DNA of 64,000 bases, from assembly GCA_044344255.1 (NCBI GenBank), contig JBIJDH010000016.1:124937-188936 (forward strand), given 5' to 3'. The notes beneath the pieces were generated by a model. That model did no database searches. It was not told the origin of the DNA and saw only the letters and a program-made list of their open reading frames with translations. Source of the stretch: Myxococcota bacterium. GTDB lineage: Bacteria; Myxococcota_A; UBA796; UBA2385. Shown here in pieces: positions 10,145 through 40,615 of the stretch. A program made the translations under genes and the position numbers. Each line of letters opens with the position of its first letter. Positions within the stretch are counted from its first letter, which is position 1.

Positions 10145-11191
10145 ATGGGCAGGCCGCGCATCCTCATCGCCGATGATGATCGTACGCTCCGGGTCTTCCT
10201 CGGCGCCCTCGCCGAGCAGTGCGGCTTCGATGTCCTGCTGGCCGAGGATGGCGCCGTGGCGCTCGAGCTCGCCCGCCGCTGCGGGCCGGCCTTCGTGGTC
10301 ACCGATCTGCACATGCCGATCCTCAGCGGGCAGCGGCTGATCCCGCTGCTGCGCGCGCTCCCGGGCATGGTGGAGGTGCCGGTGATGGTGGTCTCCGCCG
10401 ATCCGAGCCGCACCACCAAGGTTGACCTGCTCAAGGCCGGGGCGGACGACTTCATTCAAAAGCCCGTCGATCCCGAGGAGTTCATGGCGCGGCTCCTGGC
10501 GATGGCCCGCCGCGGCAACGTCGCCACCGAGCTGTACAGTGCGCGGGCCGAGCGAGATCTCGCCCTCGTCCGGCTCGAACAGAACCACCAGGAGCTCGAG
10601 CGGCTCACCATCGGCCTCGTGGCGGCCCTCGAGCGGGCGAGCGAGCTCAATGACACCGACACCGGCAACCACATCCGGAGGGTCTCGGCCTTCGCCGCCC
10701 ACCTCGCGCGGGCCGTCGGGCAGCCCGCGGAGTTCGTGGACGCGCTCGGGCGGTACGCGGGCCTCCATGACGTCGGCAAGGTGGGCATCCGCGACGCCAT
10801 CTTGAAGAAGCCCGGCCCCCTCACCGCGCTCGAGTTCGACGAGATGAAGGGCCACACGCTGATCGGCGCCGACCTGCTGCGCTCGGCGGGCCTGCCGGAG
10901 ATGGCCGCCAACATCCCGCTCTGCCACCACGAGAAGTGGAACGGCCGGGGCTACCCGCGGGGCCTCGAGGGGGAGCAGATCCCGATCGAGGCGCGCATCG
11001 TCGCCGTGGTCGACGTCTTCGACGCGCTCAATTCCCGTCGCTGCTACAAGGCGGCCTTCGGCTTCTCGGTCTCCTGCCAGATGCTGCGCGAGATGGCCGG
11101 CCGCGACCTGGACCCCATGTTGGTGGAGGTCTTCTTCCGCGACATGGGCGCCATCTCCGAAGTCATGGAGCGGTTCAGCGACAATGGCTGA
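10145..11191 (+). CDS. response regulator with HD-GYP phosphodiesterase domain
   Basis: REC: ILIADDD, TDLHMP, QKP; HD-GYP: HIRRV, HDVGK, HHEKWNGRGYP. Confidence 0.93.
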   Translation: MGRPRILIADDDRTLRVFLGALAEQCGFDVLLAEDGAVALELARRCGPAFVVTDLHMPILSGQRLIPLLRALPGMVEVPVMVVSADPSRTTKVDLLKAGADDFIQKPVDPEEFMARLLAMARRGNVATELYSARAERDLALVRLEQNHQELERLTIGLVAALERASELNDTDTGNHIRRVSAFAAHLARAVGQPAEFVDALGRYAGLHDVGKVGIRDAILKKPGPLTALEFDEMKGHTLIGADLLRSAGLPEMAANIPLCHHEKWNGRGYPRGLEGEQIPIEARIVAVVDVFDALNSRRCYKAAFGFSVSCQMLREMAGRDLDPMLVEVFFRDMGAISEVMERFSDNG

Positions 11192-14100
11192 CTTCACCCC
11201 GCTCCCCGGGCGGCCCTTCGGCCGCTGGACCCCGCACCGCCAGCTCGGGCGCGGCTCCTTCGGCGCGGCCTGGTACGCCACCGATCCCGAGGGTCGTGTG
11301 GGCGCCCTCAAGATCTTGAGCGAGGACCCCGGTGATGAGGTGCGGGCCCTGGCGATGGTCTGCCACCCCTCGATCCCCACCCTGCTCGACTCGGGCACCT
11401 GGCCGGCGCCCTTCGTCGTCATGGAGCTGATGCGAGGGCGAACGCTCGGGGCGCTGCTCCGAGCGGAGGCGGTCGATCTCGACCTCGCGATCGACGTCGC
11501 CGCGAACGTCGCCGACGCGCTCGCGACCGTCCACCACACCGGCCTGCACCACGGAGACGTCAAGCCAGACAACATCCTCGTCGCCCAGGGGGTCGAGCGC
11601 GCGGTGTCGCTGGTCGACTTCGGCCTCGCGCTCCGGGGGGGAGGCGGCACCTTGCGCTACGCCTCCCCGGAGGCCCTGATCGGCAACAGCCGGGGCACCG
11701 CCGCTGACGTGTACAGCCTCGGCCTCGTGCTCTGGGAGATGCTGCACCGGCGCCGCGCCTGGTCGGAGCTCGATCTGGGGCAGTCGCTCATCCGGCGGCG
11801 AATGGAGGTGCCGCCGGTGGAGGTGGGCCCGCCGTGGCTCCGACGGCTCACCGAGCAGATGCTGGCGATCGACCCCGCCCATCGCCCGAGCGCGGCCGAC
11901 GTGGCCGACGCCCTCTCGGCGCACGGGGCGCACACGGCCGAGCCCGGGCCCGACCTGCTGCGTCGACGCGCGCGCGTGGTTCACGTCCCGTTGGCGGGCG
12001 TCGATGATGCGCTGCTGGGCTGGGTCTCCGCGCTGGCGGGCGCGACGGCCCGGGCTCCGACCGCGGTGTCGACCGGGGTGTCGGCGGGCGGCCCCGAAGA
12101 CGCGGACGGCGGTCGGAACCTCGCGCTGATCGGCGGCGCGGGCGCAGGGCGCACCCACCAGATCGATCGGCTCGTGCGAGAGCTCCGGGTGCGCGGCATC
12201 CCCGTCGTGCGCCTCGCCCCCGCCGACGAGCCCTGGGCCTCCGTCAGCGTCGCGCTCTCCGATCCCTCCCTCCCCGAGCCCCCCGTCGCCCTGCCGACGA
12301 TCGCCGATCCCCTCGATCGGGCCGAGGCCGCCGCCGAGGCCCTCGAGGCGCGGGGCAACGGGAGGCTGGTCGTCGTCGTCGATGATGAGGACACCCTCGA
12401 TCCCAGCGCCCGCCTCCTGGTCTCCGCCCTCGTGCGGCACCGGGTGGTCTACCTGTGCTCTGCGGGCGCCGCGCCGCCGGAGTGGGCGGCGCGCCTGGTC
12501 CGGCTGCGGGCCTTCGACGCCGCCGAGCTCGCCGACCTCACGCGCCAGATCCTCGGCCCTGACCTCAACCTCGGGCCCCTGATCACCTCGCTGCAGATCG
12601 CCTCGGGCGGAGTGCCGGACGCGGCGGTCGCCTTCATCGTGGCGGCCGGGGAGCGCGGCGCCCTGCTCTTGCGGCGCCAACGCTGGCTGGTCGACGAGGG
12701 CGCGCTCCAGGCCCTCGTGCACGAGGGCTCGGGCGCCGCGGGGGCCGACGTCTCGCTGCCGACGGACGCGGCCTTGCTCGGCGCCTTCCTCGCGGTGATC
12801 GGCCGCCCCACGCGTCGGGAGAGCCTGCTCGCTTCGGCGCCCCTCCCCTTCGACCGGGCGCAGGCGGCGCTGCCCGTGCTGCTCGACAGCGGCCTCGTGC
12901 GGCTCGACGAGCACACCCTCCTGCCGCGGTCGGCGGCGGCCGTGGCGAGGCTCCGCGCCCTGTCCCCCGACCTCCCGGCCCTGCATCGGCATTGCCTCCT
13001 CACGCTCCGGTCTCAACCGGAGGTGCCCTACGATCGGCTGGGCCGGCACATCGTGGGCGCCGGGGACGCGGTCGAGGCCGCTCGGCTCGGTGCGCAGGTG
13101 ATCGCCGCGGTGGCCGCCCTCGATCCCGCCGAAGCGGCGCGGATCGCCGACGGGCTCTGGGGTGTCGCGCCTGTCCCCGAGCTGGCCCTCGCCCGCGCGC
13201 GCGCCCTCGTCGGCGCGGGCCGCACGGAGGAGGGCTTCGCCGCCGCCGAGCAGGCCCTCGCGGGGCGGGAGCACGGCCCTGACGACGTGGGCCTCCTGAC
13301 GCTCCAGGCCGACGTCCACCGGGCCTTCCACGATGACGGCGCCGCCGCCCTCGCCTCCATCGTGGCCGCGCACGCGGCGCTCGGCGGCGCCCCACCCACG
13401 CCGAGCCTCCGGGTGGCCGAGGCGAACGTTCACTTCGCCGCTGGGCGGGTCGAGGAGGCCATCCGGGTCGCGCGGCCCTTCGCCGAGGCCGAGCCCCCCG
13501 AGGCTGAGGAGGACCTCGAGCAGTGGCTCCGCCTCCGCGGCATCTGGGCACAGTCCACCCACAAGGCCGGCGACACCGCCGGCGCGATCGCGATCCTCGA
13601 GCTGCCCGACCTCGGCGGTCGCGGCGGCCCCGCCCGGGCCCTGCTCGAGGGGATGAGGGGGCGCCTCCTGCTCCACGCCGGCCGCATCCGCGAGGCCGCC
13701 GCGGTGATGCAGTCGGCGGCCCGGGTGGAGACGGGCCTCTCGGTGCTCGACCGGGCGCGGATGATGAACAACTGGGGTTTGGCGAGCTACTCAGCGGGAG
13801 ATCGCCAGGAGGCCCTCGGTGCCTGGGAGGACGCCCTCCTCCTCTTTGAGCGGATCCAGTCCCCCTTGGAGCAGATCCGCGTCAGCATCAACCTCTGTGT
13901 CGGCTACCAGGAGGGCGGCCGCTGGGAGCGGGCGCGCCAGGTGGGCCAGTGGGCCCACGACGAGGCGACCCGCCGCGGGCACCCAGACCTCGTCGCCATC
14001 GCAGCCGGGAACCTGGGTGACGTCTTCCTCGGCCAGGGCGCCTATGAGGAGGCCGAGGCCCTCTTCGCCCGCGGGGCCCGCCTCGCCGACGAGCTCGGGA

Positions 14101-15719
14101 TGGCCAGCGAGCTCGTAGAGCTGGCGCGTCGGGACGCTGAGCTGGCCGTGCTCCGCGAGGAGGAGGGCTCGCTCGTGAAGGCGGAGCGCGCGCTCCGGCT
14201 GGCCGGCGAGCAGGGGATGGTGGTGGAGGAGTGCCGCTCTCACGCCCTCATCGCCGTCTGCCTCGCGCGTCGCGGCCGGCTCAACCGGGTCGACCGACAC
14301 CTGGGCCTCGCCGTCGCCCCGCTCCGGGAGGCCGGCGCGGCCGGCGAGCTCGCCCGGGTGCGCCTCTGGGCCGCCGAGGCCTACCTCGCCGCGGGCCGCA
14401 CCCGCGACGCCGCCGCGGAGTGTGATCGGGTCTCCGCTTACGCGCAGGAGGCGGGCCTGCTGCCGCTGCGCACCCGCGCCGATCACCTGCTCGCGCTGGC
14501 GAGGGCCGGATCACCGGAGTCGTTGAACGGGCGCCTCGAGGAGCTCTTGGCGCTCGCCGTCGCCATGACCCGCGAGCGCGACCTGCCCACCCTCCTCCAG
14601 GGCATCGCCGGGGCGGCGCTGACGCTGCTCCAGGCCGACCGCGCCTTCGTCGTGCTCGGCACCGCGGAGGCCCCCGAGATCGCGGCGGGGCGAGTGCGGG
14701 ACGGGGTGGACGCGGGCCTGCCCGCGATGTCGATCGTTCGCCGCGTGATGCGCCAGGCCCGCGAGGTGCTCGCCGCGGACATCGGGGAGCGCGGCGACCT
14801 CCGGGCCGCAGAGAGCGTGCTCGCGCTGCACCTGCGCTCGGCGATGTGTGTCCCCCTCGTCGAGGGCCGCGAGACGGTGGGCGCCATTTACGTCGACAGC
14901 CGGATGGAGAGCGAGGAGGAGCTCACCGAGGCCGCCAAGCTGCTCCGGGCGCTGGCCAGCCACGCCGCGGCGGCGGTGACCAACGCCCGCCGCGTGGCCG
15001 CCCTCGCCGACCGCACCGACCGCGTCGCCGAGCTCGCCCATGACATCCGAAACCCGCTCTCCGCCCTGATCGTCATCGCGCGGAACCTCGCCCGCCGTGA
15101 CCTCGCCCCGACGGTCGTCGAGGCGGAGCTCCGCAAGCTCGATGAGCTCTCGCGCGACACGATGGTGATGCTCGACCAGATCGTCGAGCCCGTGGCGGTC
15201 CCCGTCGCGGTGGTCGAGCTCGACCGCCTGGTGGCCCACGTGGGAGACATGCTGGCGGTCGAGGCCCGCTCCCGGGGCGTCGCGCTGGACATCGACATCG
15301 AAGAGGGCCTCCCCGCGGTGCAGGGGAACACCGCCGAGCTCTTCCGGGCCTGGTCAAACATCGTCTCCAACGCCATCAAGTACTCGCCGGCGGGTGGGAG
15401 GGTCTCCGTCCGGCTGCGGGTGGCCGGCGGCGAGCTCGTCGGCGTCGTCGAAGACCAGGGCCCGGGCATCCCCGAGGATCAGCTCGAGGCCGTCTTTCGT
15501 CGGGGCGTGCAGGCCCCCGGAGCCCTCGGAGGGCACGGCCTCGGGCTCGCTATCGCCAGTCGTGTGGCCTCCGAGCACGGCGGCCGCCTGGTGGCCGAGA
15601 ACCGCGCAGAGGGCGGCGCGCGGCTCGTCCTGACCCTCCCCTTGGAGCGGCGGCCGCCCCCGCCCGTTGCGGCGAATCCGTCCATCGGGGGAGGGACCGA
15701 TGACCCGATCGGCCGCTAA
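11184..15719 (+). CDS. hybrid Ser/Thr kinase - P-loop - TPR - GAF - histidine kinase
   Basis: GRGSFG, HGDVKPDN, DFG; GGAGAGRT; GAF SAMCVPL...AIYVD; AHDIRNPL, NAIKY, DQGPGI, GLGL. Confidence 0.9.
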   Translation: MADFTPLPGRPFGRWTPHRQLGRGSFGAAWYATDPEGRVGALKILSEDPGDEVRALAMVCHPSIPTLLDSGTWPAPFVVMELMRGRTLGALLRAEAVDLDLAIDVAANVADALATVHHTGLHHGDVKPDNILVAQGVERAVSLVDFGLALRGGGGTLRYASPEALIGNSRGTAADVYSLGLVLWEMLHRRRAWSELDLGQSLIRRRMEVPPVEVGPPWLRRLTEQMLAIDPAHRPSAADVADALSAHGAHTAEPGPDLLRRRARVVHVPLAGVDDALLGWVSALAGATARAPTAVSTGVSAGGPEDADGGRNLALIGGAGAGRTHQIDRLVRELRVRGIPVVRLAPADEPWASVSVALSDPSLPEPPVALPTIADPLDRAEAAAEALEARGNGRLVVVVDDEDTLDPSARLLVSALVRHRVVYLCSAGAAPPEWAARLVRLRAFDAAELADLTRQILGPDLNLGPLITSLQIASGGVPDAAVAFIVAAGERGALLLRRQRWLVDEGALQALVHEGSGAAGADVSLPTDAALLGAFLAVIGRPTRRESLLASAPLPFDRAQAALPVLLDSGLVRLDEHTLLPRSAAAVARLRALSPDLPALHRHCLLTLRSQPEVPYDRLGRHIVGAGDAVEAARLGAQVIAAVAALDPAEAARIADGLWGVAPVPELALARARALVGAGRTEEGFAAAEQALAGREHGPDDVGLLTLQADVHRAFHDDGAAALASIVAAHAALGGAPPTPSLRVAEANVHFAAGRVEEAIRVARPFAEAEPPEAEEDLEQWLRLRGIWAQSTHKAGDTAGAIAILELPDLGGRGGPARALLEGMRGRLLLHAGRIREAAAVMQSAARVETGLSVLDRARMMNNWGLASYSAGDRQEALGAWEDALLLFERIQSPLEQIRVSINLCVGYQEGGRWERARQVGQWAHDEATRRGHPDLVAIAAGNLGDVFLGQGAYEEAEALFARGARLADELGMASELVELARRDAELAVLREEEGSLVKAERALRLAGEQGMVVEECRSHALIAVCLARRGRLNRVDRHLGLAVAPLREAGAAGELARVRLWAAEAYLAAGRTRDAAAECDRVSAYAQEAGLLPLRTRADHLLALARAGSPESLNGRLEELLALAVAMTRERDLPTLLQGIAGAALTLLQADRAFVVLGTAEAPEIAAGRVRDGVDAGLPAMSIVRRVMRQAREVLAADIGERGDLRAAESVLALHLRSAMCVPLVEGRETVGAIYVDSRMESEEELTEAAKLLRALASHAAAAVTNARRVAALADRTDRVAELAHDIRNPLSALIVIARNLARRDLAPTVVEAELRKLDELSRDTMVMLDQIVEPVAVPVAVVELDRLVAHVGDMLAVEARSRGVALDIDIEEGLPAVQGNTAELFRAWSNIVSNAIKYSPAGGRVSVRLRVAGGELVGVVEDQGPGIPEDQLEAVFRRGVQAPGALGGHGLGLAIASRVASEHGGRLVAENRAEGGARLVLTLPLERRPPPPVAANPSIGGGTDDPIGR

Positions 15720-16522: not shown

Positions 16523-19078
16523 TCAGGGCGCCGCGGTCTCTGCCCCTTCGAGAGCGGCCGTCTCCTCGCAGGCGCCCTCGGCCTCCTCGGCGCAGTAGCA
16601 GGCGTCGCCCACGTCGCAGGTGGCGGCCTCGGCCTCGATCGCCTCGATCTCGGTGCCGTTGAAGTGCACCGATGACATTGCCAGCTCGCCGCTGCTCGCG
16701 CTGAAGACGGCCGCGCCCTCCTGGAGGCCCGACCCGGTCACCCAGCCGCCCGCGCCGAGCAGGCCGGCGGTGGGGGAGGTGGGATCGATGATGGTGCCGA
16801 AGCCTGCGTTGTATCCGAGCGGGCTCGAGACGAGGCCGCTGCCGAGCATGAGCGGCTGAAAGCCGAGCGGGCTCGAGACGAGGCCGGAGCCGGAGAGCAC
16901 CGTCTGGGCGGTGGGCGCTCCGGGATAGGCGGAGAGACCCTCGCCGTCGATGGAGAGCGCCGTGAGCACCGGCGAGGAGGCGAGGCCTGTGGGCAGGGAC
17001 CAGATCGTGAAGCCCAGCGGCGAGGAGACGAGGCCAGTGCCGCGGGTGAAGGTGAAGCCCAGCGGCGAGGAGACGAGGCCGGAGCCGTCCGACCACTCCA
17101 CCTCACCCTCGGCGACGACCGTGGCGCTGTCGAGCCGGGCCGGCGTGAGCAGCAGGGCGGTGGGCGTGTTGAAGATGCCGACGCCGTGGTTCACGAGGGC
17201 GTAGGACTCGGCGAGGGGGCCGAGGTCGGCGTCTGCGCCTGCGCGCCAATGAAAGGAGAGCAGGGCGTCGGCGGCGTCGGGGTCGTCCTGCATGGCGGCG
17301 ATGAGCTGGTCGAGGCCCTCGCTCCAGACGAGGCCGGGGCGGGGGTGGTGGCCGACGCCGTCGGAGATGATCTGGTCGACGCTCACCCGCCAGGAGGCCG
17401 TGGTCGCGCCGGCCCCGCCCTTGGCCGGACCGGTGATCGTGCACATCCCATCGACCGTGACGCAGGAGAGCGCCGCGAAGCCGGAGCCCCACATCGAGGC
17501 CGCCACGGTGACCCCGTCCGCCAGCGCCCCGTCTTCGTCGAAGACCGTGACGCGGGCCTTCGGCAGGACGACGCCCGGGCTCGTGTCAGCCAGCAGGTAG
17601 GGCATGATCGACACGTGGTAGTGGCGGGCCTCCGGGGTGCCGGGTGAGCCCACCGCGGCGAGGGCCGCCTCGATGTTCAAGCGGCCAGCGCCCCAGAGGC
17701 CGGTGTAGGGGCTCTGGGTCCAGGAGAGGGGCGTGGTGGTGCTCTGGAGGAGCTCCTTGACCTCGCCCGGGGCGGCCCCCTCGGCGAGGAGGGCGGCGAC
17801 GGCGCCGGTCACGAGGGCGGTGGCCTGGCTGGTGCCGGCCATGAAGACGTAGCGCGGGGTCGCGGGGGCCCCGGGGGTGATGGTCTCGGCCAGCACCCCG
17901 TCGACATAGCCGTCTTTGTTGAGGTCAAAGCTGAGTGAGCCGCCGGATGCCACGAGGTCGGCGCGGGTGCCGTTGTTCGAGTATCCGGCGGGGAGGAAGG
18001 TGGTCTTGCTGGCGGGGCGGTCGGCGGCGACCGCGATGACCAGCGGATTGGAGGCGGGGTAGGTGATGTCGTGCTGGGCTGTGTTCCCGGCCGCCGACAC
18101 GAGCACGGCGCCGCCCAGTGACACCTCCTCGAGCGCCGCCGCGAGGGCGTGTGAGGGGGCGTAGCCGAGGCTGAAGGAGAGGCTCATGTTGACCACGTCG
18201 GCGCCGTGGTCTGCCGCCCAGGACAGCGCGTTGACGAGGGCGAGCTCGGTGCCCTGGTTGTTGGCGTCGAGCACCTTGAGCGGCATCAGGCTCATGCCGG
18301 GGCAGACCCCCTCCATCGCCCCGGTGGAGGCGAGCAGGCTGGCGATGTGGGTGCCGTGCATGTGGTCGTCATTGGGATGAGCGTCGTTGTTCACGAAGTC
18401 CCACGGGGCGACGAAGGGCGTGGCCTGCAGCGTCGGTGCGACGGCGTAGGAGACGCCGCCCACCGTCGCGGTCTCGAAGGCGACGCCGGTGTCGATCACC
18501 GCCACGGTGACCCCAGTACAGTCGAGGGTACCGACAGGGGGGGTGTGGATCGCCGCGAGGTGCCACTGGAATTTGTTGCCCCGGGTGGTGCTCGGGCCCA
18601 CCGGGAGGGCCGCGCCCGTAATGCGGCCCTCCGGGGCGGCGTCGGCCACCTCGGGGTCCTCGAGGAGGCCGGCGATGAAGGTGTCGCGGTCGGCGCCCTC
18701 GGGGACGGCGAGGCCGGCCCACCCGGAGGGGCCGCGCGGCACGGTCACGCGGCTGCCGTGGCGGGAGGCGACGCGGTGCAGGGCCTCGGCGTTGGCCGCG
18801 GAGACCATGACCTCGTGGGTCAGGTACGGGGACGGCCCCCCGGCGCCTGAGTCGGCGCGGCCGGCAGAGGCGGGGGCAAGAGCGCCGGAGAGGGGCGCCG
18901 GCCCGCGGGAGTGGGACGCCCCGCCCGCCTGGGCGCCCCGACGGGCGGCAGCACCCTGCGCAGCCGCATCGGAGGGCGCCGACGGGGGTGCGAGCATGGA
19001 GCGAGCCGCCCAGAGGCCCAGGAGCCCGAAGAGAGAGAGGAGCGCGGTGGGCACGACCAGGGATGGACGGCGGTTCAT
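16523..19078 (-). CDS. S8 subtilisin-family serine protease with C-terminal repeats
   Basis: Triad VAVIDTG, HGTHIA, GTSQAT; oxyanion AAGN; N-terminal hydrophobic helix; ATG 19078 preferred over 19162. Confidence 0.92.
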   Translation of the reverse strand: MNRRPSLVVPTALLSLFGLLGLWAARSMLAPPSAPSDAAAQGAAARRGAQAGGASHSRGPAPLSGALAPASAGRADSGAGGPSPYLTHEVMVSAANAEALHRVASRHGSRVTVPRGPSGWAGLAVPEGADRDTFIAGLLEDPEVADAAPEGRITGAALPVGPSTTRGNKFQWHLAAIHTPPVGTLDCTGVTVAVIDTGVAFETATVGGVSYAVAPTLQATPFVAPWDFVNNDAHPNDDHMHGTHIASLLASTGAMEGVCPGMSLMPLKVLDANNQGTELALVNALSWAADHGADVVNMSLSFSLGYAPSHALAAALEEVSLGGAVLVSAAGNTAQHDITYPASNPLVIAVAADRPASKTTFLPAGYSNNGTRADLVASGGSLSFDLNKDGYVDGVLAETITPGAPATPRYVFMAGTSQATALVTGAVAALLAEGAAPGEVKELLQSTTTPLSWTQSPYTGLWGAGRLNIEAALAAVGSPGTPEARHYHVSIMPYLLADTSPGVVLPKARVTVFDEDGALADGVTVAASMWGSGFAALSCVTVDGMCTITGPAKGGAGATTASWRVSVDQIISDGVGHHPRPGLVWSEGLDQLIAAMQDDPDAADALLSFHWRAGADADLGPLAESYALVNHGVGIFNTPTALLLTPARLDSATVVAEGEVEWSDGSGLVSSPLGFTFTRGTGLVSSPLGFTIWSLPTGLASSPVLTALSIDGEGLSAYPGAPTAQTVLSGSGLVSSPLGFQPLMLGSGLVSSPLGYNAGFGTIIDPTSPTAGLLGAGGWVTGSGLQEGAAVFSASSGELAMSSVHFNGTEIEAIEAEAATCDVGDACYCAEEAEGACEETAALEGAETAAP
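16811..17086 (-). repeat. five intragenic GL(V/A)SSP(LG) repeats
   Basis: GSGLVSSPLGF, GTGLVSSPLGF, PTGLASSPVL, GSGLVSSPLGF, GSGLVSSPLGY. Confidence 0.9.
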
Positions 19079-19284
19079 CGGGTGCCTCGTTTGTCGGGGG
19101 TTTTCCGCTGCGACCCTCCACAGAGGGCAGTGGGGCGCCTCGAGCCGTAGATCGGTCCTCACCCACCGACCACCCGGCGAGCGGGTGGCGGGAGGGTGTG
19201 AACATCGCGGATATAGCGGCTGAGGGCGCTCGCGGCGGGGACGGTGACCTGGGACCTGCTCTGAACCTCAGGTGGGATCACCGG

Positions 19285-19848
19285 TCACTTTTGTACCACA
19301 CCGCGTTCCACGGTCCGCTCTTCGTCCAAAGAAAGACCGTCTGGGCAGAGCGCGGCGAGAGCGGCGCCCAGGGCGGGGTGGTCGATGCCGCGGAGGGCGC
19401 TCTCGACGAACTGCGCGGTGTTTACGCCCTGCGTGGAGCGATAGCGCTGGGCCTGGACGAGCATGTCCAGCTTGTCGAGCTGGTGTACGAAGTGGGCCTC
19501 TGGGCTCCTATTTTGTTCGTAGTCTTCCCAGAGCGCCCAGAGGGGGGGGCGCCCTGCGAAGAGCCGCGCGGCGGCGATTCGCTCGCGGCGGGCCTTCTCT
19601 TCGCGGGAGATGCCGTCGAAGGGGGTGATGTCTCCGACGGTCGCTTCGGCGAGGTCGTGGAGGAGGGCGAGCAGCACCACCCGACCGCGGTCGAGCTCCG
19701 GCGGACAGAAGAGGAGGCCGAGCATGGCCACACCCCAGGAGTGGGCGGCCACGGACTCGGCCTCCACCACGCCCACGCGCGCCCAGCCCGCGCGCTCGAC
19801 CTCCTTGAGGGTCATCACCTCGTCGAGCAGCGTGTCGAGGGGCTTCAC
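19285..19848 (-). CDS. HD-domain hydrolase (YfbR/HDDC2-like)
   Basis: RAGW, ESVAAHSW, LLHDLAEATVGD, DKLD. Confidence 0.88.
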   Translation of the reverse strand: MKPLDTLLDEVMTLKEVERAGWARVGVVEAESVAAHSWGVAMLGLLFCPPELDRGRVVLLALLHDLAEATVGDITPFDGISREEKARRERIAAARLFAGRPPLWALWEDYEQNRSPEAHFVHQLDKLDMLVQAQRYRSTQGVNTAQFVESALRGIDHPALGAALAALCPDGLSLDEERTVERGVVQK

Positions 19849-20873
19849 CGGACCACGAGGGCGCGCTGGTCGGGCCAGCGGGTGCTGATCAAGATCGGCT
19901 CCCGGCGCTGGCGCTCGAGGAAGGCGTCCTTGTCTCGGAGCCCGGCCCAGCCGAGCGAGACGAGGACCTGCCCCACCGCCCCGCCGAGGTTGCTGCCCGG
20001 GCCGGGGAGGAGGATGACGTCCGGCCCATAGTCGCCGAGGGCGCGGCGGAGCATCGTGCTGAAGTCAAAGGGGCCGACGACCTGCTCCCCGAGCGTGTAG
20101 TCGCGGAGGGCCGCGGGATCGGCGAAGCGGGGGCGCCAGGAGCGGCCGGCCCCGTCGATCAGGGGCAGGGTGGGGGCCCGCCAGCGGAGGCCGGCGAGCT
20201 CGGCCTCGGCCCGCGCGCGGGTCGCGGCGAGCAGCGGGGTGTGGAACGCCGAGTGCAGCGGGAGCCGCAGGGGAAATTGCTGGGCGCCGATGTCTACCTT
20301 GGGGAGGGCCGCCACGGCTGCGGAGAGCGCGGCCTCTGTCCCACCGAGCACGATCTGGCCACCAAGCAGGATGGATCGGTATAGTTCGGGGATGGTGTCG
20401 AGGAGCCCTGCGACGAGCCGCTCCCGCGCCGCGTCGGGCCGCCAGGTGTCGAGGTCGACCAAGGGGTAGACGAGCTGCCCGCCCACCACGTTGCCGGCCT
20501 GGAACTGGCCCAAGGTCTCGATCAGCCGGCCGCCCTCGTCGAAGGGGAGGGCGCCGGCGTAGGTCAGCGCCGTGTACCAGCCCATCGAATTGCCGCAGAC
20601 GGCCACCACCTCGACCTTCTCGGGGTCGAGCTGGTCGAGGTCGGCGAGGGAGGCGCCCGCGGTGAGCAGGCTCGCGTTCTCGCCAGCGACGTGGCTGCGC
20701 AGCGAGAAGGCGCTGAGCCCGTCGAGCTCGCGCACGGTGGGGCGGCCGGCGGCGGCGCGGAGCGCGTCGAGGCGGTCGAGGGCCGGGGAGGCGAGGCCCT
20801 GCAGGCTGCCGAGGGAGTCGCGGCCGTAGCTGCCGCGGCCAGGGCAGAGGACGAGGGCGCGGAGGCGGCTCAT
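19845..20873 (-). CDS. FabD-fold acyltransferase (ACP S-malonyltransferase-like, atypical)
   Basis: ATG 20873 overlaps the E1 stop; CPGRGSY, GNSMG, SAFHT. Confidence 0.85.
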   Translation of the reverse strand: MSRLRALVLCPGRGSYGRDSLGSLQGLASPALDRLDALRAAAGRPTVRELDGLSAFSLRSHVAGENASLLTAGASLADLDQLDPEKVEVVAVCGNSMGWYTALTYAGALPFDEGGRLIETLGQFQAGNVVGGQLVYPLVDLDTWRPDAARERLVAGLLDTIPELYRSILLGGQIVLGGTEAALSAAVAALPKVDIGAQQFPLRLPLHSAFHTPLLAATRARAEAELAGLRWRAPTLPLIDGAGRSWRPRFADPAALRDYTLGEQVVGPFDFSTMLRRALGDYGPDVILLPGPGSNLGGAVGQVLVSLGWAGLRDKDAFLERQRREPILISTRWPDQRALVVR

Positions 20874-23140
20874 GGGCGGGCTCCCGGGGCGGGCTCGGCG
20901 GGGAGGGGGGCGCCGTCTGGGGCCCGCCCGAGCAGGCGCAGCGCGGCGGCGAGGATGTCGGGCTCCTGCACCAGCACGAGGTTCGCGGCGGCCCCGAGCG
21001 GGATGTAGGTGTCGACGCTCGTGACCCGGGCCACCCGGACGCCGGGGAGGCGCTCGGCGAGCAGGGCCAGGATGGGCTCGGCGAGGCCCCCGCTGCGGCG
21101 GCACTCGTCCACCACGAGCACCCGCCCGGTCGCCTCCGCCTCGCGGAGGATGTCGGCCTCGGGCAGGGGGGCGATCCAGCGCAGATCGACGTTCCGGCAG
21201 CGGACGCCCAGCGCCTCGAGGCGGGCGGCCACCCGCAGGCTCATCCAGTGGCCGTTGGCGTACGAGATGAGGGTGAGGTCCGTGCCGTCGCCCCAGGTGC
21301 GGGCGGTGCCGGGGGCGGCGAAGCGGCCGGGCTCGGGGTAAGCGAAGCTCCAGCGGCCGTCCTTGTCCTCGTGGAGGTCCTTGGTCATGTAGAGGGCGAT
21401 GGGCTCGAGGAAGACGGCCACCCGCCCGAGCGCCTGGGCCATCGAGAGGCAGCCCCGCAAGAGCAGCACGGCGTCTTCGCCGTTCGAGGGGCAGGCGACG
21501 ATGAGGCCCGGGATGTCGCGCAGCGAAGCGAGGGCGTTGTCGTTGTGGAAGTGCCCGCCGAAGCCCTTCTGATAGGCGAGGCCGGCGATGCGCACCACCA
21601 TGCCGTTCGTGTACTGGCCGTCGCTGAAGAACTGTAGCGAGCAGGCCTCCCCGCGGAGCTGGTCGATCGCGTTGTGCAGATAGGCGAGGTACTGGATCTC
21701 CGGCACCGGCAGGGCGCCCTGGTGGGCGGCGCCGATTGCGAGGCCCAGGATGGCCTGCTCGTCGAGGTGGGTGTTGAAGACGCGCCCCACGCCGGCGCGG
21801 CGCTCGAGGTCGGTGGTGACGTTGTAGACGCCGCCCTTTCGGGCCACGTCCTCGCCGAAGAGGAGGAGGTCGGGGAAACGCACGAGGGCGTCGCCGAGGG
21901 CGCGGTTGATCTGCACGGCCATGTGGCGCGGGCGGTCGGCCTCGGGGAGGCGGCCCTCGAAGAAGTCGGCGCGGCCGGCCTCGGGGGCGAGCGTGGCGGC
22001 GTGCTCGGCGAAGCGCGCAGGGTCCCATGGGGCGAGGGGGGCGATGACCGCGGCGGCGCTCTCGAGCTTGGGACGACGGCTGGCCTCGCGCCCGAGGGCG
22101 GCGGTGCGGGCCCGGAGCTCCTCGTAGACGGCGCGCAGCTCTTCGGGGGTCGCCCAGCCGCCTTCGACGAGCAGGCGCGCTGTGGAGAGCAGCGGGTCAG
22201 CGGACTCGGTGGCCTCGATCTCCTCGTGGCTGCGGTAGCTCTGCTCGACGTCCGAGCCGGCGTGACCGAGCAGGCGCACCGTCTTGAGGTGCAAGAAGGC
22301 GGGGCGGCGGGTCTCGCGGACGAAGCGGACGGCGGCGAAGGCGGCGTCGGCGGCGTCGGGGAGGTCGAGGGCGTCGCCGTGGAAGTATTGGAGGCCCGGC
22401 CAGCTCGAGAAGCGCTTGCCGACCCAGCCCTCGGGGGTGCGGGTGGAGATGCCGATGCCGTTGTCTTCGCAGACGAAGAGCACAGGGCAGGGCAGGCGCT
22501 GGTGATCGGCCAAAGCGGCCGAGTTGAAGGCGCCGCAGGCCGTCGAGTGGTTGGAGGAGGCGTCGCCGAAGGTGCAGACGATGACGCTGTCGTCGGGGAT
22601 GGCGGAGCGCAGGCCCAGGCGCCGCCGGCGGGCCAGCGTGAAGGCCGCGCCTACGGCCTTCGGCAGGTGGCTGGCGATGGTGCTCGTCTGCGGGGGGATG
22701 CAGAGCGGGACGCTGCCGAAGACCTTGTGGCGGCCCCCGGCGATGGGCTCGTCCAGGCTGGCGACGAGGCCGAGCAGCACGTCGAGGATGGGGGTGCTGC
22801 CCGGCACCTGGCGGGCGCGCTCGGCGAAGAAGCCCCCCGAGCGGTAATGGAGGAAGGCCATGTCGGTGGGGCGGGTGGCGGCCGCGACGACCGCGTTGCC
22901 CTCATGCCCGCTCGAGCCGATGGTGTAGAAGCTCTGGTCTGTTGCCTTGAGGTTTCGGGCCTCGAAGTCGAGGTGACGGCTGCCGACCATCGACTCGAAG
23001 AGCCCGAGCGCCAGTCGGGCGCTCAGCTCACTCCCGGCGCGCACGGGGCGGTCGAGGTCATCCCGCCGGGGCGCGGCGTGGAGGCCGTCGAGGAGGCGGA
23101 GGAAGTTCTGATCGACGACGGCGGCGCGGCTGACGGCCAC
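20870..23140 (-). CDS. fused alpha/beta ThDP-dependent 2-oxoacid dehydrogenase E1
   Basis: HYRS, GDA...EDNGIGIS, GHAGSD, GEDV, EIQYLAY, GGHFHN. Confidence 0.9.
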   Translation of the reverse strand: MAVSRAAVVDQNFLRLLDGLHAAPRRDDLDRPVRAGSELSARLALGLFESMVGSRHLDFEARNLKATDQSFYTIGSSGHEGNAVVAAATRPTDMAFLHYRSGGFFAERARQVPGSTPILDVLLGLVASLDEPIAGGRHKVFGSVPLCIPPQTSTIASHLPKAVGAAFTLARRRRLGLRSAIPDDSVIVCTFGDASSNHSTACGAFNSAALADHQRLPCPVLFVCEDNGIGISTRTPEGWVGKRFSSWPGLQYFHGDALDLPDAADAAFAAVRFVRETRRPAFLHLKTVRLLGHAGSDVEQSYRSHEEIEATESADPLLSTARLLVEGGWATPEELRAVYEELRARTAALGREASRRPKLESAAAVIAPLAPWDPARFAEHAATLAPEAGRADFFEGRLPEADRPRHMAVQINRALGDALVRFPDLLLFGEDVARKGGVYNVTTDLERRAGVGRVFNTHLDEQAILGLAIGAAHQGALPVPEIQYLAYLHNAIDQLRGEACSLQFFSDGQYTNGMVVRIAGLAYQKGFGGHFHNDNALASLRDIPGLIVACPSNGEDAVLLLRGCLSMAQALGRVAVFLEPIALYMTKDLHEDKDGRWSFAYPEPGRFAAPGTARTWGDGTDLTLISYANGHWMSLRVAARLEALGVRCRNVDLRWIAPLPEADILREAEATGRVLVVDECRRSGGLAEPILALLAERLPGVRVARVTSVDTYIPLGAAANLVLVQEPDILAAALRLLGRAPDGAPLPAEPAPGARP

Positions 23141-23229
23141 GGGGGCCTCCTGGGCGGCCGGCCTCTTATCCCGAGGCGAGGGCGTGGTCGACCGGCGGCT
23201 GGAGGCATAGAGGATGGGGAGAGGCCCAC

Positions 23230-23718
23230 ATGCCGACCCCGCTCGTGCTTGTCACCGACCCTGAGGGGCGCATCACCCACCAGAACGCCTCGGTCCGCGC
23301 GCTCTGCGGGGACTGCGTCGGGCTCCACTGCTGCGAGGTCTTCAAGCGCGCGACGGGCAGCGCCTGTCCAGGCCCCGCCCCGGGCGGCGGGAGCGTGGAG
23401 GGCCACCACGAGCCGATCGGCTTCGTCGAAGCGCGGGGGGTGGTCGGCCCGCTCAGCGTCTCCAACGTGGGGGAGCTGCGCGTGCTGGTGATGCAGCCGA
23501 AGGGGGTCTGTCCGGGGCCGCCGATCGAGATCTCCCCGCGTGAGACCGAGGTGCTGCGCCTCGTCGCCGAGGGCTACACCGACCCCGAGATCGCCGCCGA
23601 GCTTGGCCTGCAGGCGGCCACGGTGCGCAGCCACGTCGAGAACCTGCGGGCCCGGCTCTCGGCGCGCACGCGGGCCCAGGCGGTGGCCCGGGCTCACAAG
23701 CTCGGCCTGCTCGCCTGA
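23230..23718 (+). CDS. PAS-like + LuxR HTH transcriptional regulator, Cys-rich sensor
   Basis: VLVTDPEGRITHQN; CGDCVGLHCC; SPRETEVLRLVAEGYTDPEIA...TVRSHVENL. Confidence 0.88.
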   Translation: MPTPLVLVTDPEGRITHQNASVRALCGDCVGLHCCEVFKRATGSACPGPAPGGGSVEGHHEPIGFVEARGVVGPLSVSNVGELRVLVMQPKGVCPGPPIEISPRETEVLRLVAEGYTDPEIAAELGLQAATVRSHVENLRARLSARTRAQAVARAHKLGLLA

Positions 23719-23736: not shown

Positions 23737-25464
23737 TCAGCGCCCGAGGGTCAGGAGCCCGTCTGCGACGAGGTCGTTGACGATCTCCTCGTCTTCGGGG
23801 GGCTCGGCGCCGAGCGCGCGGGCGAGGGCGAGCAGGGCGTCGCGGGGGACCGGCTCGAGCGCGCCCTCGAGCAGGCGGCCGATGGCCTCGTTGCCGTCGC
23901 CGATCGAGGGGCGGCCCGTCGAGTCGGTCTCGATGATGATCCAGGTCGGCGGCTCGACCAGCGACGGCCGCGGGGCGGGACCGTCCCGCTGCACGAGGTT
24001 GGCCAGGGGGTCGGGGCCGAGGCTGTCGCGCAGGCGCGCGTAGTGGAGGGGGATGTCACCGGGGAGGCTGCAGAGCGCGGCGCCCTCGGCCAGCGCGATC
24101 TGCCCCGGCCCAGACGCCCCGCGCGGGCGGCGGGCGCGGGCGAGGGCCAGCTCGAGCTCGGCGAAGGGGCCGGCGGCGGGGCGCAGCCAGGCGCCGAAGG
24201 TGAGGGCGAGGGAGCCGCCCCCGGCGATGCAGGCGTGGAGCTCCGGGCTGTCGAAGAAGGCCTCGAGGCCCGGCACCCCGCGGAGGAGGACGGAGACCGG
24301 GAATTCGGGGACGAGGCCGGTGAGGGTCCGGGCGCGGCGGTAGCGGTCGGCAGACCAGGCCCGCCGGTCGATCGCGAGCAGCCAGCTGCGCTCGTCCTCG
24401 GTCAGGGGGGGCTGGCCAGCGGCCTCGAGGGGGCGGCCCTCGTGAAGGTCGTCGACGAGGCGGGGATCGTAGAGCAGCCGGGCGATCGTGGTCTGGACCC
24501 TTCCGTCCGGGGTCTCGAACAGGCCGGGGCCCTTCGGGCGGGGCGCGGGCTCGGCGGGCTCCCAGGAGGGCGCGATCGGGCTCAGGCCAGGGCGCCGGCT
24601 GCGATCGTGAAAGAAGGCGCCGGCGACTCGGCGGAAGAGCGGCCCGACCGCCTCGATCGTGTTGCGCTCGCACTCGACGATGACCGCCTTCAGGTTGGGG
24701 GCACGATCGATGATGTGGTCGAAGATCTGCCAGGTGTCATCGAGCACCTCGGGGCTGTGGTCATCGTCGACCCAGGCGAAGCCGTCGGTGTGGACCGTCC
24801 GGCCCCCCGCGACGTGCAGCTCGACGATCCGCTCGAGGGGGAAGCCGTCGAGGCCTGCGGTGGGCGAGCGGCCGCGGAGGCGCTGGTAGATCGCGAGGTG
24901 GGCGCAGTCGAGCAGCATCCCGGTGTCGGCTCGCTCGCAGAGGCGTGCGTAGTAGTCGAGGAGGTCCATCGGGCCGACGAAGGCCACGCCGGGCGGGTTC
25001 TCGGGCAGCACCTCGAGCCCGGTGCGGCTCCGCAGGTAGGCGATTCCGGCGGCGGTCGCGTCGGCGGAGCGGGGGCTCAGCACCGGCGGCAGCAGCAGCA
25101 TGTGGTCGCGATCGCGGCGGCCGAGGTGCCAGAGGCCGGCGTCGCCGCAGAGCCAGGCGGGCCGCAGCACGGCGACGAGGGCCGCCACCTCCTCGAGCCA
25201 GCGCTCGTCCATGTCGTCGGGGTCATCGAGGTTGACGTCGAGGAAGTGGTAGGTGGTGGGCAGCTTGCGGGCGGCCCAGGCCAACGCGCCCGGGTCGAGG
25301 CCCTTCGCCGTCTCGACCCCCACCTCGAGGAAGGCGCAGAGCAGGGGCAGCGCCTCGTGCAAAGCGAGCGGATCGAGGGCGCTGGGCGCATCGGCGGCGC
25401 CGTACTCGGTGGAGACGCCCACCCCGAGGACCGGCAGGGCGCGGACGCGGTCGAAGAAGCTCAT
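23737..25464 (-). CDS. DUF692 (MNIO) enzyme fused to a DUF2063-like partner domain
   Basis: LGVG, FLEV, PENPP, MLLDCAH, ELHVAGG, DDH, VECER; about 270-aa C-terminal extension. Confidence 0.8.
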   Translation of the reverse strand: MSFFDRVRALPVLGVGVSTEYGAADAPSALDPLALHEALPLLCAFLEVGVETAKGLDPGALAWAARKLPTTYHFLDVNLDDPDDMDERWLEEVAALVAVLRPAWLCGDAGLWHLGRRDRDHMLLLPPVLSPRSADATAAGIAYLRSRTGLEVLPENPPGVAFVGPMDLLDYYARLCERADTGMLLDCAHLAIYQRLRGRSPTAGLDGFPLERIVELHVAGGRTVHTDGFAWVDDDHSPEVLDDTWQIFDHIIDRAPNLKAVIVECERNTIEAVGPLFRRVAGAFFHDRSRRPGLSPIAPSWEPAEPAPRPKGPGLFETPDGRVQTTIARLLYDPRLVDDLHEGRPLEAAGQPPLTEDERSWLLAIDRRAWSADRYRRARTLTGLVPEFPVSVLLRGVPGLEAFFDSPELHACIAGGGSLALTFGAWLRPAAGPFAELELALARARRPRGASGPGQIALAEGAALCSLPGDIPLHYARLRDSLGPDPLANLVQRDGPAPRPSLVEPPTWIIIETDSTGRPSIGDGNEAIGRLLEGALEPVPRDALLALARALGAEPPEDEEIVNDLVADGLLTLGR

Positions 25465-26219
25465 CGGCCCACCGCCGCGAAGTCGGCGAACACCGCGGAC
25501 AGCGGGCTCGACTCTCCATGGGCGACCACGGCGAGCGCCGAGCCGAAGAGGGGCCCGGGGCTGCGGAGGAGGCGGCCGAGGGTGCTCGCGTGGCGATCGA
25601 GCTCTTCAAGGGTGCCGACACGGTGGTGGGGGGCCTCGCGGTGGAGCCGGAGCACGCTGCGCCACGCGGCGTCCCGCGCCTTCTGGAGGCCGAACATGCC
25701 GAGCCACTCGTCCTTCTGGCCGCCGAGGCGGTCGAGCACGTTGAGCCAGGGCGAGTGGCGGTCGAGCGTGGCCTGGATGTCGTCGAGGAGCTCGGCGAGC
25801 ACGGCGTTGATCTGCATGAAGTCGCGCTGTATGCCCGCGGGATTGGCGCCCTCTAGAACGTCGATCACCGTGGGCGCGAGGTCGAGGTTGATGTGGGCGT
25901 TCATGCCGAGGAGCAGGTGTTGGATGAGCGCGTGGTCGCGGTCGCGGGTGGCCTCGAAGGCCACTCGCCAGGCGCGGCTCGGCGGCTGGCCGACCGACCA
26001 GGCGGCCTCGGCGTCGAGGTAGCGGTTGGCGAAGGAGACGACGAAGCGGCCCATCCGGGGCCCGTCGTCGAAGCGGCCCGCGGTGATCGCCTCGCCCACC
26101 CGGCCCGTCATCTGGCGGTAGAGCGAGGGGAAGAGGCCGATGGGATCCTGCTTCAGCGCGGCGCCGGCGATGATGCGCTCGAGCTCCACCTTGACCTGAT
26201 CCAGACTTGAGACGCGCAT
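25461..26219 (-). CDS. DUF5995-like protein
   Basis: FPSLYRQMT, FANRYLDA, LLLGMNAHINLDL, DFMQIN. Confidence 0.7.
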   Translation of the reverse strand: MRVSSLDQVKVELERIIAGAALKQDPIGLFPSLYRQMTGRVGEAITAGRFDDGPRMGRFVVSFANRYLDAEAAWSVGQPPSRAWRVAFEATRDRDHALIQHLLLGMNAHINLDLAPTVIDVLEGANPAGIQRDFMQINAVLAELLDDIQATLDRHSPWLNVLDRLGGQKDEWLGMFGLQKARDAAWRSVLRLHREAPHHRVGTLEELDRHASTLGRLLRSPGPLFGSALAVVAHGESSPLSAVFADFAAVGR

Positions 26220-31630: not shown

Positions 31631-32704
31631 ATGGCGCTCTTCTCCCAAAACAAGACGTCAATCGGCCTGGACATCGGGTCGAGCCACGTGAAGCTCATGG
31701 AGCTCGAGCGGGACAAGCGCTCGGGGAAGTTCCGGCTCGTCAATTTCGGCATGACCCGCCTGCCCCCCGAGGCCATCGTCGACGGCGCGGTGATGAACAC
31801 GAACGTGATCGTCGACGCCATCCGCGAGCTCGTCCAGAAGCACCGGGTCAAGACGAAGAACGTGGTGGCTTCTGTCTCGGGCAACGCCGTGATCATCAAG
31901 CGGATCAACCTGCCGCTGATGAGCGCCGATGAGCTCGAGGAGTCCATCCAGTGGGAGGCGGAGCAGTACATCCCCTTCGACATCAACGACGTCAACATTG
32001 ACGTCCAGATCTTGGAGGGAGCAAGTGAAGATCCGGGTCAGATGGAGGTCCTCCTCGTCGCGGCGAGGAAGGAGCTGGTCAACGAGTACCAGTCCCTCAT
32101 CAGTCAGGCGGGCTTGAAGGCCTCGGTCGTCGATGTGGACGCCTTCGCCGTCGCCAACATGTTCGAGCTCAACTACGACGTGCAGCCCGAGACGGTGGCG
32201 CTGATCAACATCGGCGCCAGCAACGTCAACATCCACATCCTCCGCCGCGGGGTGAGCGCCTTCACCCGCGACGTCGGCATCGGCGGGCGGCAGTTCACGG
32301 AGGAGATCCAGCGCACGCTGAACATCTCCTACGAAGAGGCCGAGGCGATGAAGGTGGGCGGGGATGAGCACGACGCCTCCGCCGTGGTCCCGGAAGAGAT
32401 CGAGCGAGTCCTGGCTTCGGTGGGCGACAACTTGTCGGTGGAGATCCAGCGATCCCTCGACTTCTACCGCTCCACCTCGTCCGACTCCGCCATCGCCCGC
32501 ATCTACCTGTCTGGCGGCGCCGCGCGCACCCCGGGCCTCTCGCGGGCTATCGGTCGGCAGACCAACCTCCCGGTCGAGGTGGTAGACCCCTTCCGGCGGA
32601 TACAAATCGACGAGCGGAGCTTCAACCCCGCTTTTCTCAATGATGTCGCCCCGCAGGCCGCCGTGGTGGTGGGGCTCGCCGTTCGGAGGCCGGGCGACAA
32701 GTGA
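31631..32704 (+). CDS. pilM: type IV pilus assembly protein PilM
   Basis: IGLDIGS, WEAEQYIPF, INIGA, LSGG, GLAVR. Confidence 0.96.
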   Translation: MALFSQNKTSIGLDIGSSHVKLMELERDKRSGKFRLVNFGMTRLPPEAIVDGAVMNTNVIVDAIRELVQKHRVKTKNVVASVSGNAVIIKRINLPLMSADELEESIQWEAEQYIPFDINDVNIDVQILEGASEDPGQMEVLLVAARKELVNEYQSLISQAGLKASVVDVDAFAVANMFELNYDVQPETVALINIGASNVNIHILRRGVSAFTRDVGIGGRQFTEEIQRTLNISYEEAEAMKVGGDEHDASAVVPEEIERVLASVGDNLSVEIQRSLDFYRSTSSDSAIARIYLSGGAARTPGLSRAIGRQTNLPVEVVDPFRRIQIDERSFNPAFLNDVAPQAAVVVGLAVRRPGDK

Positions 32705-33339
32705 TTCGGATAAACCTACTCCCCGTCAAGACCTCGCGTCGCCAGGAGGCGGTGCGAAACGAGCTCATCCTCGCGGGTGTGGGCGTCGTGGTGCTCCTCC
32801 TCTTCCTCGCGGTCGCCCAGGTCGCGGTCACGGCGCGCGTGAACACGATCCGCCAGGAGAACGTGAAGCTCGGAGAAGAGATCCGGCGCACCCAAGAGAT
32901 CGTCAAGGAGGTCGAACGCCAGGAGAAGCTCCAGGCTGACCTTCAGAAGAAGCTCGAGGTCATCAAGCGGCTCAAGGCCAACAAGTCGGGCCCGGTCCAC
33001 ATGATGGAGGAGCTCGCAAAGGCTTGCCCCGAGAAGCTCCAACTCGAGGGCCTCGACGAGAAGAAGGGGCGAATTGAGCTCACCGGCACCGCGGTCAGCA
33101 ACGAGATCATCTCTCAGTTCCTGAGCAACCTCGAGCAGTCCGACTACTTCGAGGAGGTCTACCTGAACGCCATCGATCAGGTCGAGAAGGAAGGAGTAAA
33201 GCTCAAGAATTTCTCCATCACGGCGCGTCTCATCGTGCCCGGCACCGCCATCGTCCCGCCCGCGCCTGAGGCGGCGACCCCCGCGGCGCCTGCAGCGCCT
33301 GCGGCCCCTGCGGATGACAAGGGCCAGAAGGCCGGCTGA
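32701..33339 (+). CDS. pilN: type IV pilus protein PilN
   Basis: IRINLLP PilM-binding motif, TM helix, coiled coil. Confidence 0.95.
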   Translation: MIRINLLPVKTSRRQEAVRNELILAGVGVVVLLLFLAVAQVAVTARVNTIRQENVKLGEEIRRTQEIVKEVERQEKLQADLQKKLEVIKRLKANKSGPVHMMEELAKACPEKLQLEGLDEKKGRIELTGTAVSNEIISQFLSNLEQSDYFEEVYLNAIDQVEKEGVKLKNFSITARLIVPGTAIVPPAPEAATPAAPAAPAAPADDKGQKAG

Positions 33340-33356
33340 GGCCCAGGAGAGCACCC

Positions 33357-34597: not shown

Positions 34598-34674
34598 TGG
34601 ATCGGATTCGAACGGGCCCGAGCTCGGTGCATCGAAGCGGGATGCACAGACGTACGACGAAAAGGGGAGAGACG

Positions 34675-37059: not shown

Positions 37060-37062
37060 GCG

Positions 37063-39358: not shown

Positions 39359-39365
39359 GCGGCTC

Positions 39366-40112: not shown

Positions 40113-40121
40113 GTCATCTGG

Positions 40122-40568: not shown

Positions 40569-40615
40569 GGCGTCCCTACTTTCCATCGCGGGGAGGGCCA
40601 CCCCCTCGGGAGGGC

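Follow-up and report, generated by a model that had tools for sequence, protein, structure and literature searches.

We analysed a window of 64,000 nucleotides from the genome of a Myxococcota bacterium (GenBank assembly GCA_044344255.1, contig JBIJDH010000016.1, positions 124,937 to 188,936), and focused on a pair of genes encoding a 2-oxoacid dehydrogenase component (E1) and a FabD-fold enzyme (AT). The E1 gene (20870–23140, reverse strand) encodes a fused alpha/beta thiamine diphosphate (ThDP) enzyme of 756 amino acids with the Pfam domains E1_dh, Transket_pyr and Transketolase_C, which is likely the E1 of a 2-oxoadipate dehydrogenase. It is followed on the same strand by the AT gene (19845–20873), whose product of 342 amino acids appears to be an acyltransferase or hydrolase that lacks the malonyl-binding arginine and is predicted to dock on the alpha half of E1, and by a gene for an HDDC2/YfbR-like HD hydrolase (19285–19848; 187 amino acids; Pfam HD_3; E = 2e-26 to human HDDC2). 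Both gene junctions are overlaps of 4 nt, namely ATGA (20870–20873) between E1 and AT, and GTGA (19845–19848) between AT and the HD gene. A LuxR-type regulator (23230–23718, forward strand; 162 amino acids; GerE, E = 4e-14) is divergent from E1. This arrangement agrees with an initial annotation of the stretch, except that the PAS domain assigned there to the N-terminus of the regulator gave only a weak match (PAS_8, E = 0.27, below the cut-off).

No matches to E2, E3, GcvH or LipA were found by tblastn in the window or in 129 loci, and no PP-binding (acyl carrier protein, ACP) match fell inside the window range. The sole biotin/lipoyl domain of the window (40122–40565) directly precedes a biotin carboxylase gene and hence represents the biotin carboxyl carrier protein. 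Thus, the window is devoid of E2, E3, lipoyl domains and ACP, in line with the initial annotation. A canonical complex operon, with the cognate E2 and E3 beside E1, was found neither in the window nor in the 129 loci. However, the term 'E2-less' applies to the locus only, because the source genome (8.2 Mb, 95% complete) encodes four full E2s, E3, LipA, GcvH, SucAB and a canonical FabD. Elsewhere in this genome (C18:357420-362657), genes for LipA, an E1β-like protein (seemingly misread or with a frameshift), E2, a short E1α-like protein of 200 amino acids and E3 form a cluster.

The E1 shows the three domains, the GD(G/A)...N ThDP motif, the catalytic glutamate and the two histidines of an alpha/beta-type 2-oxoacid dehydrogenase. 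Residues G192-D193, N227, R100, H293, E461, H530 and H532 were each conserved in 109–110 of the 110 alignment rows. All PDB matches at E ≤ 1e-10 were alpha/beta subunits of pyruvate dehydrogenase (PDH) or branched-chain 2-oxoacid dehydrogenase (BCKDH), and no 2-oxoglutarate E1 model was among the NCBIfam matches. On sequence grounds, the E1 is placed outside the homodimeric, OGDH-type family of DHTKD1 and OGDH. In an alignment to human BCKDH, whose register is ambiguous at this point, an RHKV loop stands where BCKDH has RQMPVH. Its residues R137-H138-K139 (22724–22732, reverse strand) were present in 109, 110 and 109 of the 110 rows, respectively, and form a candidate site for a distal carboxylate. 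We take this loop to line the substrate pocket; the pocket residues of BCKDH could not be confirmed in print. The own genome contains a second E2-less fused E1 (C52:201874-205492; 773 amino acids), which lies behind a glycine-oxidase-like FAD enzyme and belongs to another subfamily.

The AT carries the PGRGSY, GNSMG and ETLG motifs listed in the initial annotation, of which GNSMG (20580–20594, reverse strand) contains the nucleophile Ser96. It had no Pfam match, and every NCBIfam score was far under the cut-off (36.6 bits against 260.9 for the FabD model TIGR00128). Its AF2 model (pLDDT 95.3) matched FabD/MCAT structures in Foldseek with a TM score of about 0.7 at an identity of 17–24%. Like FabD and MdcH, it combines this fold with a Ser-His dyad and with PGxG and xFH motifs. 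Unlike FabD, it has GNS for GHS, Arg13 for Gln11 and no Arg117, and it coexists with a separate canonical FabD. L121 (20511–20513, reverse strand) is aligned with the arginine in VEMRGKF of E. coli FabD, and at 25 residues past the nucleophile serine the AT has leucine where the canonical FabD of the same genome has arginine. The absence of the malonyl-binding arginine, reported earlier for this protein, extends to the 72 diverse family members that were compared: position 121 was M in 61, T in four, L in three, A in two, I in one and V in one, and never R. In contrast, S96 and the partner H211 (20241–20243, reverse strand) were invariant (72/72), and R13 (71/72), R39 (68/72), H207 (66/72) and the GNS motif (69/72) were nearly so. 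Scored with the AT profile, FabD/MCAT proteins reached 60–75 bits and the hydrolase PksD 41 bits. As judged from these alignments and the predicted fold, the AT is a FabD-fold Ser/His enzyme that is non-malonyl and not FabD itself.

A scan of GTDB confirmed 579 relatives of the AT in the 18 of 64 parts that were read, and the number of GTDB stretches with an AT is put at about 2200. The best 80 loci were kept; this set is biased, and two of its loci come from one genome. In 79 of the 80 loci the gene immediately upstream of AT was E1, and the single exception had E1 elsewhere in the genome, so that the pair itself, whose conservation the initial annotation had left to be checked, is well conserved. 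The other genes of the locus are less so. The HD gene came next after AT in 18 of the 80 loci; among 12 loci of the own phylum it did so in 10, and its coupling to AT is therefore lineage-restricted. The LuxR gene occurred in none of the 80 and none of the 12 loci. Hence, it is not a member of the conserved unit, and we rejected it as a dedicated regulator of the operon. A promoter scan of the 89-bp gap between the divergent E1 and LuxR genes found nothing.

Furthermore, we sampled 251 genomes of the own phylum and 251 genomes of Pseudomonadota. In the own phylum, AT was found in 31 genomes, all of which had E1, in 30 cases adjacent to it. Conversely, 14 of the 45 own-phylum genomes with E1 (92–99% complete) had no member of the AT family; their best matches reached 46–70 bits or were absent, while a true member scored 480 bits. 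In Pseudomonadota, E1 was present in 17 genomes, with the seed genome counted, of which eight had AT and nine did not. AT without E1 in the same genome was never found in the sampled genomes. Since AT is missing from 23 of the 62 genomes with E1, it is an accessory and not an obligate substitute of E2; the earlier claim that it 'replaces' E2 does not hold for an E1 that persists without it in 14/45 and 9/17 genomes. In the E1 tree, AT-less sequences were nested within AT-linked clades several times (L131, L135 and L138 among others), and closely related strains with and without AT occur in Halomonas, roseobacters and Alteromonadales.

In two genomes the AT gene is split by a frameshift (G050:C29:20536-21550) or contains an internal TGA (G201:C101:13758-14765), which may be assembly errors or signs of ongoing loss. 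Next to AT-less E1s of three unrelated lineages (L126-L131, L102, L104) we observed glutathione S-transferase or DsbA/kappa-GST-like genes, checked with Pfam for L127, L131 and L102. These neighbours may be there by chance or may be a substitute partner.

E1 and AT also occur as one protein. P0288 (1128 amino acids, five members) is an in-frame fusion of E1α, E1β, a linker and AT, with 35% identity to the E1 and 43% to the AT of the window; a second fusion, the fragment P0221, is 55% identical to it. The N-terminus of P0288 resembles a mitochondrial presequence, and the protein is probably eukaryotic. In the loop of its E1, GVHC stands in place of GRHK, and its substrate may therefore differ. 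A search of the ESM Atlas with P0221 returned MCAT-like leads only, all of them sub-threshold. A further apparent E1-AT fusion of 1082 amino acids, P0275, was rejected, because a frameshift makes its E1 tail run into AT in the wrong frame.

A complex of E1α (residues 5–350), E1β (409–734) and AT (4–331) was modelled with own alignments, as a single αβ unit without the linker. The complex scored 0.85 in three runs, compared to 0.00 for the best of three controls, with a contact agreement of 100% and a partner pLDDT of at least 89. Of 157 solved pairs, 116 attained this score mark, as did 2 of 215 mismatched pairs; for a three-chain job of this kind these counts are only a rough guide. All listed E1 contacts were on the alpha half (41–49, 110–119 and 330–349), with residues 110–119 (22784–22813, reverse strand) at the centre of the predicted docking surface. 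The AT contacts (242–252 and 273–285) include the invariant residues G243 and P284 and exclude Ser96 and His211. At 22 interface positions, 25 AT-less E1s retained the consensus of the AT-linked E1s at fractions of 0.64, 0.56 and 0.63, compared to 0.78, 0.86 and 0.91 at other alpha positions of similar conservation. In particular, T116 was kept in 79% of 84 AT-linked E1s but in 4% of the 25 AT-less E1s. The rows in this comparison are related by descent, and for L123 and L125 the AT-less label comes from the searched record only. Docking of the AT on E1α is predicted by the model, and finds evolutionary support in the decay of the interface and in the natural fusion.

The commonest third gene of the loci encodes an acyl-CoA dehydrogenase, which scored about 640 bits (E = 1e-192) against solved glutaryl-CoA dehydrogenases (GCDHs) and at most 246 bits against other specificities. 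GCDH was located within 7 kb of the pair in 36 of the 80 loci, with three weaker acyl-CoA dehydrogenase matches (27–31% identity) left out. In most gammaproteobacterial loci it was at least 78% identical to the query GCDH. A frequent order is gcdH-E1-AT with a divergent LysR gene. Among annotated genomes, Ruegeria sp. THAF33 has the order LysR, aminotransferase, GCDH, E1 and AT, Shewanella aestuarii has GCDH, E1 and AT, the replicon of Legionella adelaidensis that carries E1 and GCDH is without AT, and Nonomuraea has E1 alone. The Ruegeria pair bears the locus tags FIU92_RS18070/18065.

Several other genes of lysine metabolism were found near the pair: HglS (L051, L060, L084), the piperideine-6-carboxylate dehydrogenase AmaB (L051, L080, L092) and saccharopine/lysine dehydrogenase-like genes (L053, L063, L080) in three loci each, and 2-aminoadipate transaminase in one locus (L060). 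In six Marinimicrobia loci (L050, L052, L068, L071, L082, L094), a homocitrate synthase-like gene lies between AT and GCDH. AT-less E1s have similar neighbours: GCDH adjoins E1 in four of the nine Pseudomonadota loci, and in L099 and L101 E1 is preceded by a gene resembling saccharopine dehydrogenase.

Genome-wide, GCDH was present in 17 of 17 Pseudomonadota genomes with E1, compared to 90 of 234 (38%) without E1, and in 42 of 45 own-phylum genomes with E1, compared to 108 of 206 (52%) without E1. The Fisher test gave p ~1e-7 for the co-occurrence of E1 and GCDH, a value that is overstated because kin are not independent. Hence, E1 is both linked to GCDH and lysine-catabolic genes and co-occurs with GCDH, as expected of a 2-oxoadipate dehydrogenase. 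The own genome encodes AmaB and GCDH, both with scores above cut-off, the latter on another contig and preceded by a class III aminotransferase gene, and has no match to HglS. The gene families that recur around the 80 loci include no ACP, ketosynthase, FabH or other branched-chain family, and no CoA-transferase; two family III CoA-transferases are encoded in the own genome. Because GCDH and genes of lysine catabolism surround the pair, rather than ACP or ketosynthase genes, a dicarboxylic glutaryl group is a likelier product than the branched-chain primer suggested initially. From this gene context we consider it quite probable that the substrate of the E1 is 2-oxoadipate.

We propose, with a probability of roughly 0.5, that the E1 is a 2-oxoadipate dehydrogenase working with a borrowed lipoyl arm and E3, and that the docked AT passes the glutaryl group via Ser96 to CoA. 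The E1, whose catalytic residues are conserved, would decarboxylate 2-oxoadipate with ThDP and reductively acylate a lipoyl arm. The lipoyl carrier and E3, absent from the locus and present in the genome, would be supplied in trans, with the arm of SucB as a first guess. Phylogenetic profiling was uninformative on the carrier, as GcvH was found in 39 of 40 genomes with E1 and in 225 of 251 background genomes, and E2 in 50 of 50 genomes tested and in 10 of 14 controls. The AT, predicted to sit on E1α, would then form a glutaryl-Ser96 intermediate that is resolved by CoA, yielding glutaryl-CoA for GCDH. In lineages without AT this last transfer would be made by an ordinary E2 core, as by human DLST for DHTKD1. 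In this scheme the AT is likely a private and dispensable stand-in for the catalytic domain of E2 only.

Several observations weigh against this proposal. The substrate assignment rests on gene context, in which kin are not independent; GCDH is missing within 7 kb in 44 of the 80 loci, and in the own lineage it is usually unlinked to the pair. The own genome, at 95% completeness, gave no match to saccharopine dehydrogenase and no above-cut-off match to lysine 6-aminotransferase; it gave no match to 3-HAO either, in a search that matched no control. R137 and K139 are read as a carboxylate site, yet they are V and C in the E1-AT fusion. The 23 E1 genomes without AT imply that its job can be done otherwise. 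Moreover, for E1o of E. coli a rate of 22 per second is reported for the glutarylation of its own lipoyl domain (PMC5986005), which makes a dedicated route strictly speaking dispensable. Finally, the AT lacks Arg117 and has no histidine before its serine, which are traits given for acyl hydrolases (PMC11775670).

The loci without GCDH and the lost RHK loop of the fusion would also fit an E1 that acts on another 2-oxoacid of amino-acid catabolism, such as 2-oxoglutarate, 2-oxopimelate or a tryptophan-derived acid, with GCDH being linked through shared regulation; so would the search of the own genome, in which no clear enzyme for the upstream lysine entry step was found. We find this distinctly improbable, given that lysine-pathway genes of five kinds are found repeatedly next to E1 across unrelated lineages and that SucA and SucB are already present in the genome. 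Still far less credible is the initial proposal itself, in which the AT, as an obligate replacement of E2, takes non-carboxylated, branched-chain acyl groups off a free-standing lipoyl carrier and passes them to CoA or ACP as primers of fatty acids. The arginine-less FabD fold, the PDH and BCKDH subunits as best PDB matches of the E1 halves and the GcvH of the genome are all in keeping with it, but the recurrent GCDH and lysine genes, the lack of ACP, FabH or other branched-chain genes among them, the RHK residues in place of the BCKDH loop and the many E1 genomes that do without AT speak against it. A substrate of 2-oxoadipate is retained if the enzyme consists of two proteins and needs no lipoyl arm. 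In that case O2 or some other acceptor would oxidise the E1 enamine, and the glutaryl group would pass directly from ThDP to Ser96 of the docked AT and then to CoA. Oxidation of the enamine by O2 has been described for E1o with 2-oxoadipate (PMC5986005). Such a route is consistent with the zero lipoyl, E2 and E3 genes in the 129 loci, the predicted direct docking and the natural fusion. It is nevertheless improbable, as E1 retains both active-site histidines, which presumably serve with lipoyl arms, E2 was present in all 50 genomes tested, the predicted AT contacts leave out Ser96 and His211, and the AT-less E1s would be left with no acceptor.

The main and serious rival, unlikely as we consider it, keeps the same E1 and substrate and changes the role of the AT. 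It would be a glutaryl-lipoyl thioesterase, a bacterial analogue of ABHD11 and of acyl hydrolases, which frees the borrowed arm by releasing glutarate, to be re-activated by a CoA-transferase. Loss of the arginine has been called diagnostic of acyl hydrolases in trans-AT polyketide synthases (PKS), and the AT shares with PksD the arginine-less FabD fold and a residue other than histidine before the serine, here Asn (PMC11775670). In human cells, glutaryl-lipoyl adducts stall the 2-oxoglutarate dehydrogenase complex and need a serine hydrolase, and ABHD11 strips glutaryl from lipoyl arms (PMC12643935). ABHD11 is, however, a different enzyme, an alpha/beta-hydrolase. Hydrolysis is also compatible with the dispensability of the AT, and the two family III CoA-transferases of the own genome could act on the product. 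In acyl hydrolases such as PksD and PedC the position of the arginine usually holds Gln or His, in the AT Met or Leu, and the AT has no PKS or ACP context. Against hydrolysis, a thioester would be wasted directly ahead of GCDH, and the AT keeps the basic residues R13, R39 and H207, whereas the entrances of hydrolases are reported to be neutral or negative. We therefore favour transfer to CoA, because GCDH needs a CoA ester, no CoA-transferase recurs among the neighbours, the basic residues are kept and FabDs outrank PksD in the AT profile.

The proposed 2-oxoadipate dehydrogenase resembles human DHTKD1, which works with borrowed DLST and E3, in that an E1 without its own E2 and E3 produces glutaryl-CoA ahead of GCDH (PMC5986005). 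It differs in that the best PDB matches of the window E1 are alpha/beta subunits of PDH and BCKDH and not of the OGDH/DHTKD1 type, and in having a private FabD-fold partner. With OdhA it would share the pairing of an E1 with its own transferase and a lipoyl arm taken in trans (PMC10415282). However, the transferase of OdhA is the catalytic domain of E2o, fused to E1o, whereas the AT, which has no 2-oxoacid_dh match, is a dispensable Ser/His enzyme of the FabD fold that is usually a separate chain. Compared to the alpha2beta2 branched-chain E1s, the window E1 has the same fold and catalytic residues, but it is a fused chain with RHKV for RQMPVH, has no E2 or E3 in its operon and occurs in a GCDH context. 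Hence, the E1-AT module is a real, widespread and uncharacterised variant of the 2-oxoacid dehydrogenases that belongs to neither the DHTKD1 nor the OdhA family.

Flux from 2-oxoadipate to glutaryl-CoA has been described in alphaproteobacteria, and the accessible text of these papers names no gene for the step (PMC5653290, PMC7645780). A description of the E1-AT pair was not found in the main texts of CC-licensed PMC and bioRxiv papers. Present annotations call the E1 a 'thiamine pyrophosphate-dependent enzyme' and the AT an 'ACP S-malonyltransferase'. If our proposal is true, genes could be assigned to the conversion of 2-oxoadipate to glutaryl-CoA in many aerobic bacteria, which would give them an option besides the HglS route. 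A further consequence would be that a FabD-fold serine enzyme can serve lipoyl-bound acyl groups, either as a stand-in for the E2 core or as an ABHD11-like rescuer of glutarylated arms. A bolder version, about which we are doubtful, would describe a core-less 2-oxoacid dehydrogenase of several bacterial phyla and of a eukaryote-like fusion, in which the docked FabD-fold serine enzyme itself makes the acyl transfer that otherwise falls to the E2 core. It would accept glutaryl from an unattached lipoyl carrier (e.g. GcvH) or straight from ThDP and form glutaryl-CoA. The E2 step would then have been invented independently, and the two genes would be the pair so far missing in bacteria for the conversion of 2-oxoadipate to glutaryl-CoA.

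Several other genes of the window were noted. A gene at 23737–25464 (reverse strand) encodes an MNIO domain (MbnB/TglH/ChrH, DUF692) of the type that matures ribosomally synthesized and post-translationally modified peptides, fused to a C-terminal region of 300 amino acids, and is overlapped by a DUF5995 gene (25461–26219, reverse strand). A TesB-like acyl-CoA thioesterase is encoded at 3631–4491 (reverse strand) and a subtilase S8 protease, with a short motif repeated several times in its C-terminal region, at 16523–19162 (reverse strand). The gene of an HD-domain response regulator (10145–11188) stands ahead of one for a hybrid protein of 1511 amino acids (11184–15719, forward strand) that combines a Ser/Thr kinase, a long middle region, a GAF domain and a histidine-kinase ATPase. 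Finally, the genes pilMNOPQ, aroB/aroQ and accB/accC form a run at 31631–41962 (forward strand).

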